Shown piece by piece: positions 43,089-45,862 of a stretch of 64,000 nt of DNA. Under the pieces are notes generated by a model. It ran no database searches and had not been told where the DNA came from. It saw only the letters and a list, made by a program, of their open reading frames with translations. A program made the position numbers and the translations under genes. Numbering within the stretch: the first letter of the stretch is position 1; the number at the start of each line of letters is the position of its first letter. The DNA is from Candidatus Moraniibacteriota bacterium (GTDB lineage Bacteria; Patescibacteriota; Minisyncoccia; Moranbacterales; JAPLXC01). The stretch spans positions 10,618 to 74,617 of the forward strand of contig JAPLXC010000002.1 of assembly GCA_026396275.1 (NCBI GenBank), in the 5' to 3' direction.

Positions 43089-43442
43089 CTACTTGCACCG
43101 GATGCATGTCTTGGCGGCGGGATAAGCCCGCAGTCGCTCGATGTTTATCTCTTGACCGCAATTGCCGCAGGTTCCGTAAGTTCCCTCTTCCATTCGTGCC
43201 AGAGCGTCGCCTACATCTTTCAGGCGCTTTTCAAGAGTGCTCTCCAGGGCTAAATTATCAGTGTATTCCTCAACTTCTGACGCGTTTTCATCCACATCGG
43301 TGCCAAGATCGCTAAATTTGGTTTTATAGTCCCCAGGAACTTCGGTAGGGGCGGCAAAGTTTTTCAGCTCGTTTTCAAGACGATTTTTTTCTTTGAGAAG
43401 CTTTTCTTTCAGTTCCGTTTGAATTTGAGGGTCAATGGCCAT
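43089..43442 (-). CDS. TraR/DksA C4 zinc-finger protein
   Basis: AL.R...GTYG.C..CG.EI..ERL.A.P.A..C..C. Confidence 0.92.
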
Positions 43443-43521
43443 AGCAAAAGATTGTTAGAAAATTAAAAGATGGAAAATTATTCCGTCTTGTTTTTATTGT
43501 ACTGGTAAACAGTGATATTGT

Positions 43522-43920
43522 CTAGATAAAAATGTTTTCAAGATGGCTTATTTTAAATGCTTTTCGGTTTTCTCCGATCCAAACGGAAAGAGCGTCAAAA
43601 TGATACGGCTTATCCCAGGCGTTTTCCTGCTTAATATAAAACAAGGCGATTTTGTTTAATTTGTGAAGCTTGGCTTTGGTAATATTTTCCTCGGGAAGCG
43701 ACTTATCGCCAGCGGAAAGCTCCCGCGTTTTTACTTCCACAAAAACGATCTCGCCGTTTTTTTTGGCAATAATATCAATTTCACCAAGTCTTCGCCCGAG
43801 AGGATTTTTAAAATTTTTTTCCAGAACCTTGTATCCTTTGTTTTTTAAATATTCTGCCGCAATTTTTTCGCCCAGCTGCCCGGTATTTAATTTCTCTTTT
43901 TTCCAGAATAAAAGCTTCAT
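43522..43920 (-). CDS. YraN/UPF0102 family protein
   Basis: G..GE..A..YL...GY..L..N, GEIDIIA, FVEVKTR, FD. Confidence 0.92.
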   Translation of the reverse strand: MKLLFWKKEKLNTGQLGEKIAAEYLKNKGYKVLEKNFKNPLGRRLGEIDIIAKKNGEIVFVEVKTRELSAGDKSLPEENITKAKLHKLNKIALFYIKQENAWDKPYHFDALSVWIGENRKAFKISHLENIFI

Positions 43921-43936
43921 AATCAGATTATAGCAG

Positions 43937-43966
43937 AAAAAACAAAAAACACCCTTGGCTGGTGTT
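43937..43966 (-). terminator. Intrinsic terminator of the upstream non-coding unit
   Basis: AACACC-AGCCAAG-GGTGTT followed by a T-rich tract on the minus strand. Confidence 0.65.
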
Positions 43967-44468
43967 CTTTTTCCCAATATTTATCAAACAATAACTTTAG
44001 TTATTGACTGATAGATATTGGGAACCGGGCGCTACTAACGCCCATAAAAATATAATTTTTTAGCGAGAGCGCCCGGTGTTTGTTGTATTGTCAACACACC
44101 AAGAGCACTTTTAGCCGGGTGAGAGGCATAAAATGGCATTCTTTGGGTGTGTATTTTGTACAATACCCCATGACATCCACTTCTGACTTAGTAATGTCTT
44201 TCCTCTACTATTCTCTGGCTTTTAGCCTTTTATCAAAGAACAAACTTTTTTATTTTTTGTATTTGTTTAAAAAAGTTTTTTTGTTTTTGTTTTAGGGTCT
44301 TGCTGTCAGATAGCAAGCGCCTAGTCCCGACGGGTAACTACCTTAAGAGACAGTCACTCGTTGGGGACTAGGACTTGAACAGTAGAAGAATTCCAATCAC
44401 AAATAGGGGGAAATTGTGATTGGAAATGCTTCCACCATTCGTTTTTAGGGCTTTTTAAGGTACAACCT
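43940..44468 (-). ncRNA. Putative ~530-nt structured non-coding RNA of unknown family
   Basis: Consensus promoter, terminator, no ORF in the track on this strand within the unit apart from an upstream extension of yraN, and at least six helices. Confidence 0.5.
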
Positions 44469-44474
44469 GTCCTT

Positions 44475-44503
44475 ATTATAGCAGAAAATAAACTAAGAGT
44501 CAA
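44475..44503 (-). promoter_or_regulatory. Sigma70-type promoter
   Basis: TTGACT-17 nt-TATAAT with TG extension. Confidence 0.8.
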
Positions 44504-44743: not shown

Positions 44744-45862
44744 CTAAAGAGCTATTTTGTCCAGTATCGCCCGGATGGTATTTTTGCTTGTTCCAATAAC
44801 TAATTGGTCGGCGGTAACAGCGTAGTCAATAGAAAGTGACTCTTCTGGATTAAGATTGGCGTAACGAATCGAGAAGTCCTTGTATGTGCTGCTTTGGAAT
44901 AATTTGTCTTTTTCCTGCGGGACAGCATCGAGAAAAAGGAAAGAGAGATCATTGATAAGTGTTTTTTCCTGGTTCTTCATCGCGGCAGTGGCTCTTCCCT
45001 TGTCTTTAAGATCTGCTGCTATTCCTATTCTAACATTTTCCGAATCGGGATAAAAGAAAAGAGAAAATTCTTCTCCTAAGTTACTTAATACCGGAGAGAG
45101 CTTGAGTCCCGAAAGAACAGCAAAGATATGAAACACTATGGGGTTATTGTTGCTGTCAGTAATGATAAACTCGATGGGAGAAGTTGTTTCTGATTTTTTA
45201 ATTTCAGAAGCAGTTTGAGCAAGTGTTTGCTTAAGTGTTTCAGGAGTGGCTATTTCAGTGTCGATGGAAAGATAGTTAGGTTTCTCCGCTGAAAATTTTT
45301 CTTCGATTTTTTCAACCGCTATCGGCTCTTCAGCGGGAGAAGGAATAACTGCTTCGGGAGTAGGAGCTGGGGCAGACGCGTTTCTGGTCAACCAGAAATA
45401 GTATCCTCCGGCAGCCAAAGCAAGAAAGGAAATAATTAAAGCGCTAACCAAAAGTATTTTTTTCCAATTAAAACCGCGTTTTGGATATTGCTCAACCGGT
45501 GTTTTAGATTCCCGGCGCGGAAGAGACGGACCGCTTTTTTTAGAAAGATCGTCTGGACGAGAAGCCGGAGAGTAGAATTTGGGAGAGGGAGGAACATTTA
45601 AAAAAGGGCTGGAGGATTGAGAAGTATCAGGCCTGTACTCTGCCGAGTTGTGACGCTTGGGAGGGGCGAAAAAATCTTTTTTTCTTTCCGGGTCGCTATA
45701 TTGCCTTGCTTCTTCTGGTGGAGCAGTCAATCCTTCAATAGCATTAAGATCATCCTGCATTGTATGAAGCGGAAAGTCCTCGCCGGCCGTGCCAGATCCC
45801 CTTTTTGGAATGTCGGGACTGACGGGCTGATAATTGTTTTTGTTATTTTTAAAACCGAACAT
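44744..45862 (-). CDS. Hypothetical single-pass membrane protein
   Basis: Disordered Pro/Ser-rich N-terminus, one TM helix and a C-terminal domain (IRY.NL, SIDYA..LVIGTS). Confidence 0.8.
   Translation of the reverse strand: MFGFKNNKNNYQPVSPDIPKRGSGTAGEDFPLHTMQDDLNAIEGLTAPPEEARQYSDPERKKDFFAPPKRHNSAEYRPDTSQSSSPFLNVPPSPKFYSPASRPDDLSKKSGPSLPRRESKTPVEQYPKRGFNWKKILLVSALIISFLALAAGGYYFWLTRNASAPAPTPEAVIPSPAEEPIAVEKIEEKFSAEKPNYLSIDTEIATPETLKQTLAQTASEIKKSETTSPIEFIITDSNNNPIVFHIFAVLSGLKLSPVLSNLGEEFSLFFYPDSENVRIGIAADLKDKGRATAAMKNQEKTLINDLSFLFLDAVPQEKDKLFQSSTYKDFSIRYANLNPEESLSIDYAVTADQLVIGTSKNTIRAILDKIAL

Follow-up and report, generated by a model that had tools for sequence, protein, structure and literature searches.

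The window analysed here, a 64,000-nt stretch from the genome of a Candidatus Moraniibacteriota bacterium (the source genome, G000; 810 kb, 99.7% complete), carries a single-copy RNA locus on its minus strand. Promoter and terminator patterns mark its ends, and protein genes lie on either side. From upstream to downstream, the features are as follows.

44744 to 45862, minus strand: conserved hypothetical membrane-anchored protein, the upstream synteny anchor, outside the RNA
44475 to 44503, minus strand: promoter of sigma-70 type with extended -10 (-35 at 44498-44503, extended -10 at 44475-44483), 11 of 12 consensus matches
44453 to 44463, minus strand: boxA-like motif 1, a label that we assume from resemblance; the rRNA leader helices of the lineage itself come after a similar motif
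44427 to 44436, minus strand: strand a, whose local partner a* completes helix P1a (93% of cells paired, compensatory change in 7 of 9 pairs)
44391 to 44425, minus strand: hairpin P1b, 12 bp with a C-rich loop at 44413-44403 (98% paired)
44377 to 44390, minus strand: strand a*, which pairs with a (local) or a' (long-range)
44320 to 44372, minus strand: hairpin P2, expanded in G000 and variable among homologues
44299 to 44317, minus strand: hairpin P3, whose loop at 44310-44305 kisses the P5 loop
44245 to 44293, minus strand: A-rich single-stranded tracts of AAAACAAAAA type, inside the long-range helix
44231 to 44241, minus strand: boxA-like motif 2, GTTC(T/C)TT, nearly invariant in a 30-row alignment
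44200 to 44213, minus strand: strand a', forming a 14-bp long-range helix with a* (84% paired, 11 of 14 pairs compensatory)
44173 to 44197, minus strand: hairpin P5, with the kissing partner loop at 44187-44182
44145 to 44169, minus strand: hairpin P6, whose 3' strand alternatively pairs with the 5' strand of P8
44114 to 44127, minus strand: hairpin P7, with the near-invariant loop YTCACCCG at 44123-44116
44075 to 44100, minus strand: hairpin P8
44024 to 44077, minus strand: 3' signature hairpin P9 (94-100% paired in the order)
43971 to 44024, minus strand: variable 3' extension hairpin
43940 to 43970, minus strand: intrinsic-terminator-like hairpin and U tract (hairpin itself 43970-43944)
43089 to 43920, minus strand: yraN (UPF0102) and a dksA/traR-type zinc-finger gene, both downstream and with promoter-like sites of their own

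The initial annotation had proposed a structured non-coding RNA of a new kind at this place, enclosed by a promoter and an intrinsic terminator. Both signals lie on the minus strand where it had put them, as do the A-rich linker and the two boxA-like motifs, and all five helices that it named are exact inverted repeats. We infer that the RNA starts near 44468. Taken alone, promoter-like and terminator-like matches in the region are at chance level (4 against 3.9 expected and 5 against 3.1 expected, respectively). The promoter pattern stands at the 5' end of 36/36 homologues from the order, and a strict scan found a terminator pattern at most 250 nt away in 21 of these 36. The minus-strand 536-mer has a folding energy of -187 kcal/mol (z = -10.6), which none of 100 shuffles equalled, and the plus strand of the same stretch reaches z = -9.6.

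The conserved core lies at about 44463-44020 and measures 358-534 nt in the 36 homologues. The annotated helices are real but not all shared: 44372-44320 is a lineage-specific expansion and 44024-43971 a variable 3' extension. The annotated set was also incomplete, since it omitted the helices 44436-44427/44390-44381 and 44390-44377/44213-44200 and the kissing loop 44310-44305/44187-44182. The claim that the unit encloses no credible ORF stands. The plus strand offers a 71-codon TTG ORF (44080-44295). On the RNA strand the longest ORF has 19 to 85 codons, and because its length and position vary across the 36 homologues, no frame is conserved; a peptide encoded in the A tract was rejected on the same ground. 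Outside the RNA, the anchor protein has one membrane segment and matches no Pfam family over the cut-off.

Covarying folds and unpaired motifs

Covariation was scored on an alignment of 30 homologues, which are kin and not independent, against two hand-drawn folds, one local and one long-range. In the local fold 87% of the cells were paired and 55 of 66 pairs showed changes on both sides; in the long-range fold the figures were 86% and 57 of 72. For both folds, 0 of 500 shuffles scored as high, and controls in which the alignment was slid reached 35-44% paired. Strand a* covaries with the upstream strand a and also with a', 170 nt downstream, and the helices a:a* and a*:a' exclude each other. 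A second pair of local and long-range helices is found at P6/P8, where the local helices are 87% and 90% paired and the long-range helix 95%. The two halves of the P3/P5 kissing loop are 100% and 77% paired with compensatory changes; the loops are complementary in at least five sequence versions, and both hairpins are lost jointly. Compensatory and G-U changes occur throughout the RNA. We found no antiterminator and no tie between the alternative helices and terminator formation; nesting of the 3' hairpin is favoured over the tandem alternative by 11 kcal/mol on average.

At p<=0.05, a long helix spanning the A tract was obtained in 21/36 members from the order and 9/20 distant members. This test was stricter than an automatic one for the a/a*/a' switch in members from outside the order, which was loose and failed to separate them from controls (14/18 against 13.0 in controls), so the three-strand switch is shown within the order alone.

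The unpaired segments are also conserved. An A tract is present in 36/36 order homologues (1.4 in shuffled sequences), in 11/14 members from other classes (0.2 shuffled) and in 4/15 members from other orders, the shortest members having none; it is the best-conserved sequence across classes. The tract is specific to the RNA strand (4/15 against 0 on the opposite strand in other orders, 11/14 against 2 in other classes), and the 15-nt A tract occurs once in G000. The boxA-like pattern was found in 36/36 members from the order, 10/15 from other orders and 8/14 from other classes, where shuffles gave 6.1, 2.7 and 2.1. The P1b loop reads CCCCCTA in 32/36 homologues (4.6 in shuffles, for five C) and is kept on a wholly changed stem in G025 and in family f137, while the P1b stem is flipped or lost in G025, G001, G037, G005 and G032. 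The P7 loop contains TCACCC in 34/36 homologues (2.8 shuffled), with CACCC invariant in 34 rows, and in just 3/14 members from other classes. The element conserved most widely is P9, which consists of a GC-rich outer stem, an internal loop, a short inner stem and an AU-rich loop (44065-44039), and in other lineages it is often followed directly by a U tract.

Distribution and gene neighbourhood

Within Ca. Moranbacteria, BLAST found the RNA in 33/40 relatives, and profile searches combined with synteny recovered diverged copies in genomes that were negative or weak by BLAST. A covariance model of the 3' domain matched 130/151 genomes of the order, nearly always once each, and its misses were concentrated in one divergent family (6/20 matched, against 123/130 in the other families). 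A 25-nt pattern for P1b occurred in 9/20 genomes of the order and in 0/381 other genomes of the class; as judged from these searches, this near-invariant hairpin is a marker specific to the order. Among the matches listed (80 of at least 120 loci), public records that carry the P1b motif belonged mostly to Ca. Moranbacteria or unspecified Patescibacteria. The motif is also carried by a sizeable group labelled Bdellovibrionales and by one record each labelled Micavibrio, Pacearchaeota and Elulimicrobium (L204-L206, L215, L224, L239 and others), which are probably mislabelled or mixed bins. Viral contigs held no exact match to the motif, and phages gave no blastn match.

Diverged members of 115-590 nt occur in other orders and other classes, and share a core made of a promoter, a boxA-like motif, a long helix round an unpaired A-rich tract, and the AU-looped 3' hairpin. 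In other classes they were found in at least 23/144 sampled genomes from 12 families, 14 of those 23 genomes having belonged to the training set of the last model. Several searches bear on this range. Two of five weak class-level matches were syntenic units with a promoter, a boxA-like motif and the same 3' hairpin. In regions downstream of the anchor gene, the hairpin pattern appeared in 22/76 (2-4 in shuffles); about a dozen of the 76 hold a clear unit of 115-370 nt, and many have no RNA there. The hairpin model gave 32/151 class matches, and among 15 class-level loci of model R2 that lay outside its training set, inspection judged 5 real and syntenic, 1 doubtful and 9 false. In the phylum sample 14/15 matches from other classes show the architecture, and with the retrained model 10 of 11 further loci inspected looked real. 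Models R2 and R3 both missed a known carrier (G004). The phylum-level hairpin alignment is out of register (58% paired, 76% after a slide of +1), for which reason its pair counts were set aside and the R2/R3 census is taken as a lower bound. The 3' core motif of the long helix recurs in 16/24 distant members (5.1 expected). Among individual families, f123 has a nearly identical P1b hairpin, f137 the same loop on a different stem, and f153 the TCACCC loop. One genome (G655) holds two different copies of the family (L448, L503). The range is wider than the initial annotation had allowed for: the locus is no oddity of a single genome, and the family is spread through the phylum.

The gene for the anchor protein stands upstream in 27/30 loci of the order and is present in 220/301 genomes of the class. 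Downstream, yraN follows in 21/30 loci of the order, and a dksA-like gene in 14/24 loci from other classes; many genomes have a dksA-like gene with no RNA in front of it. The RNA is kept where the downstream gene is convergent (L012, L442, L443, L445) and also persists beside unrelated neighbours. Its persistence before convergent genes, together with the promoter-like sites that the downstream genes have of their own, argues that it is more than a leader and that it probably acts in trans; the linkage to dksA may be merely inherited gene order. We have very little doubt that this RNA family exists in Patescibacteria, as the comparisons of homologous loci indicate, and its members are probably stand-alone, single-copy, trans-acting stable RNAs.

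Comparison with known RNA families

With the Rfam 15 models, taking a score at or above the gathering threshold as the criterion, the 64,000-nt window yielded only a tRNA, and the best E-value in the RNA region was 0.56. The 14 distant loci likewise gave only a tRNA, and five more loci had a best E of 0.37. The initial annotation had judged by eye that the RNA fits neither tmRNA nor SRP nor canonical RNase P, and the genome bears this out. Its one tmRNA lies beside smpB (G000:C22:81366-81765), ARAGORN finds none in the window, and a full-length RNase P RNA match (83.7 bits) lies at G000:C20:2847-3232; motifs of a permuted tmRNA or of RNase P seen by eye were rejected. The small-SRP model matches nowhere in the genome, the region shows no SRP match, and tblastn found no Ffh. 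No model of a group I or group II intron or of a mobile or phage RNA matched, and no copy was found in viruses or phages. The RNase P RNA gene (G000:C20:2800-2850) is itself preceded by a boxA-like motif; complementary strands flank it, and it has a long 3' insertion.

Some well-studied RNAs share single traits with this one. 6S and Ms1 RNAs are stand-alone, single-copy and driven by strong promoters, and so is the RNA described here; 6S is a closed rod with a central bubble, whereas this RNA has neither such a rod nor a match to the 6S model, in the region or anywhere in the genome. Sponge RNAs of the CsrB/CrcZ type present repeated short unpaired motifs on a structured scaffold. The A-rich tracts are comparable, but the RNA has far more conserved tertiary structure, and none of five genomes has Hfq. 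T-boxes combine a long first stem, an A-rich linker and alternative helices, all of which are found here, at a site before a dksA-like-lspA pair. The RNA differs in having no model match and no antiterminator bulge and in persisting without the downstream gene; despite its mutually exclusive helices, a T-box or riboswitch was rejected, as the RNA is not always 5' of a co-oriented gene.

The closest likeness in arrangement is to rrn leaders and nut sites (boxB-boxA-boxC and a leader-trailer helix), which, as described in PMC10250234, have a 5' hairpin with a boxA-like motif and a second boxA-like motif downstream. In both, a local hairpin is exchanged for a long-range helix, and the P1b stem resembles the 16S leader hairpin. 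Unlike a leader, the RNA is free-standing and encloses no rRNA, and the kissing loop, the A tracts and the signature 3' hairpin are absent from leaders. OLE, ROOL, GOLLD and the raiA motif are similar in that they are several hundred nt long with many covarying helices, tertiary contacts, their own promoter and an open function. The present RNA differs from them in matching none of their Rfam models, in being chromosomal, single-copy and near-universal in an order, and in having a small core with a total length that ranges from about 115 to 590 nt.

As far as comparative sequence analysis goes, this is a new class of structured RNA, conserved and covarying, as the initial annotation had suspected; it is near-universal in Moranbacteria and spread through Patescibacteria. 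Of the outcomes that would have counted against the annotation, an Rfam match and a lack of conserved structure in homologues were both looked for, and neither was seen. The novelty concerns the RNA class, in that no tested family fits, and not the function. We found no description in the literature, where unread supplements or subscription journals could hold one, and unnamed clusters in the supplements of a 2026 genome-language-model preprint could include the RNA. It is not mentioned in the relevant passages of 10.64898/2026.10.21.760802, PMC7160235, PMC10633639, PMC8321541 and 10.1101/2022.03.25.485537, the last of which, in the part concerned, describes TM7x as having no validated small RNAs.

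Possible roles in ribosome synthesis

The rRNA genes are unlinked in G000. The lineage's rRNA leaders begin with a hairpin, followed by a boxA-like motif and then by a strand whose first, local fold gives way to pairing with the trailer; the same arrangement is described for E. coli rrn in passages of PMC10250234, and Nus factors chiefly assist rRNA folding according to sections of 10.1101/091223 and PMC10250234. The P1b stem is nearly equal in sequence to the hairpin with which, in the same genomes, the 16S leader-trailer helix begins. NusA is present. Hfq was found in none of five genomes (0 of 5), Rho and Ffh were not detected (Ffh by tblastn), and neither were Era, RbfA, RimP and SuhB by tblastn, a less sensitive single-sequence search. 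The genes nusB and rnc (RNase III) are present and adjacent in 5/5 genomes tested (G000:C16:39729-40954).

Other features of the rRNA genes were recorded alongside. Both unlinked genes have a terminator-like hairpin and U tract before boxA (G000:C12:3117-3280 and the 23S leader on G000:C7; L077-L136, L461-L487), and in 23S leaders the 5' arm of the terminator has a possible pairing partner in an upstream strand, with covariation in G031/G039; the leader terminators suggest attenuation of rRNA transcription. The 23S gene (G000:C7:59681 region) contains insertions, among them an intron-like stretch that holds an ORF. The 16S 5' fragments on C8 and C12 differ from each other, and one of them is possibly from another organism. 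At the 16S 3' end (L047-L076, L504-L521) a near-invariant trailer comes after the anti-SD and is able to fold back on it. An rpsU-like gene is among the G000 ORFs with a strong SD.

We tentatively propose, by analogy with rRNA leaders and at somewhat less than even confidence, that the RNA is a pre-rRNA-like molecule with Nus-assisted folding, serving as a protein scaffold or decoy in ribosome synthesis. It would be transcribed in the manner of pre-rRNA, with NusB-NusE loading on the boxA-like sites, and in the growing chain the local a:a* hairpin would be swapped for the long a*:a' helix of leader-trailer type. The finished fold would display the A-rich tracts, two C-rich loops and one AU-rich loop. 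Proteins are the most likely partners of these unpaired motifs, and we would guess at Nus factors and proteins with KH or S1 domains (NusA, S1, PNPase); protein binding fits because the loops stay fixed while their stems change, and no covariation with any tested RNA target was seen. Such a scaffold or decoy could help to set ribosome synthesis in cells without Rho, Hfq and several assembly factors, perhaps alongside the DksA-like protein whose gene often follows the RNA. Since the P1b stem can be flipped or lost and the shortest members have no A tracts, the 3' hairpin may carry the core function by itself.

All but one of the candidate RNA targets of the loops were rejected. For the C-rich loop, the 16S 3' trailer offers 12/13 complementarity in G000, in part by chance; past TAGGGA the trailer sequence varies with no covariation, and the mismatch at the centre stays unrepaired throughout. 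A target in 16S helix 11/12 fails in G590 and G566, which keep the loop and do not have the sequence, and 16S helix 44 offers only 5 bp in G000. No long cognate-specific duplex was found between the RNA and the rRNA leaders or trailer, cognate RNA-leader duplexes being no better than non-cognate ones (p = 0.10, 0.99 and 0.06). A U3-like trans guide for pre-rRNA was rejected, as no extended, covarying complementarity to pre-rRNA exists, and so was a genome-wide GGGTGA regulon, with 21/754 promoter-like sites, a chance level.

Among the rival explanations, the absence of a gene here (chance hairpins, a repeat or a DNA-level element) is scarcely credible in view of the compensatory and G-U changes, the covarying kissing loop, the strand-specific motifs, the conserved promoter and the single copy. 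A more specific role can be imagined for the P7 loop, whose target is the one candidate to survive. As a trans-acting nut site, the RNA would carry a Nus complex on its boxA motifs while its UCACCC loop docks on nascent 16S and 23S leaders, pairing with GGGTGA before the terminator-like hairpin and deciding read-through; this could bring in the Nus complex in trans, ahead of the synthesis of the rRNA's own boxA, and would coordinate the unlinked rRNA genes of G000. No GC-rich 6-mers besides GGGTGA/GGTGAA are conserved in both leader sets, and it is to these two that the P7 loop is exactly complementary. The motif occurs in 16/30 16S and 10/17 23S leaders, and in at least one leader in 11/15 genomes that have both; the pairing recurs in another class (f153, with loop and pre-terminator motif in G581 and G605), and 16 family-level lineages without the loop have, as read by eye, no such motif before the terminator. 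On the other hand, only 6-8 bp would form, and such a match has a chance of 8% for 6-mers and about 1% for 7-mers. Genomes with the motif in neither leader still keep the loop (G008, G021, G022 and G037, 4/15; G115 for 16S), variants in the leaders are uncompensated, cognate duplexes are no better than non-cognate, most distant members have no such loop, and part of the leader motif can pair in cis as an antiterminator. We regard this docking as quite unlikely. Our literature searches brought up no trans-acting bacterial RNA with such a part in ribosome synthesis; if the docking were real, a dedicated housekeeping RNA would gate and co-ordinate the unlinked rRNA genes in Moranbacteria and in at least one other class.

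The A tracts could also be read as imitating the A-rich, SD-less starts of messages, with no start codon, so that in the dormant cell the RNA would be a decoy or store for 30S subunits or S1. GGAG stands 4-16 nt before just 27/402 long ORFs (about 7%), regions upstream of ORFs are 40-50% A, the A tracts are better conserved across classes than any other sequence, and both invariant loops share a richness in pyrimidines with the 16S 3' end; against this, the short members have no A tracts and neither 16S target holds, helix 12 failing in two genomes and the trailer keeping its mismatch, which leaves the idea unlikely. A polymerase-binding RNA, acting with the DksA-like factor as a functional stand-in for 6S or Ms1, is by analogy rather unlikely: the genome shows no 6S match and the RNA is stand-alone and single-copy with a strong promoter and an ancient linkage to dksA/traR-type genes, but its fold has no 5'-3' closing stem or central bubble and no 6S model matches even at E 10. 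Mutually exclusive helices, and in many lineages a 3' hairpin and then a U tract just before the dksA-like gene, would suit a leader or attenuator acting in cis on a dksA-lspA operon, sensing a Nus complex or a ligand as riboswitches or T-boxes do. This is quite unlikely as well, given downstream genes with promoter-like sites of their own, convergent or unrelated neighbours, dksA-like genes that in many genomes follow no RNA, the lack of an antiterminator and the more stable nested hairpin.

Patescibacteria are a large, genome-reduced branch of the Bacteria, and 6S, SRP, Rho and Hfq were not detected here, yet almost every Moranbacterium devotes some 500 bases to this RNA, and a version of it is retained in many other lineages. 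Widespread classes of structured RNA in bacteria are few and have usually proved central in role. The RNA offers a concrete, testable handle on the control of ribosome synthesis in such cells.
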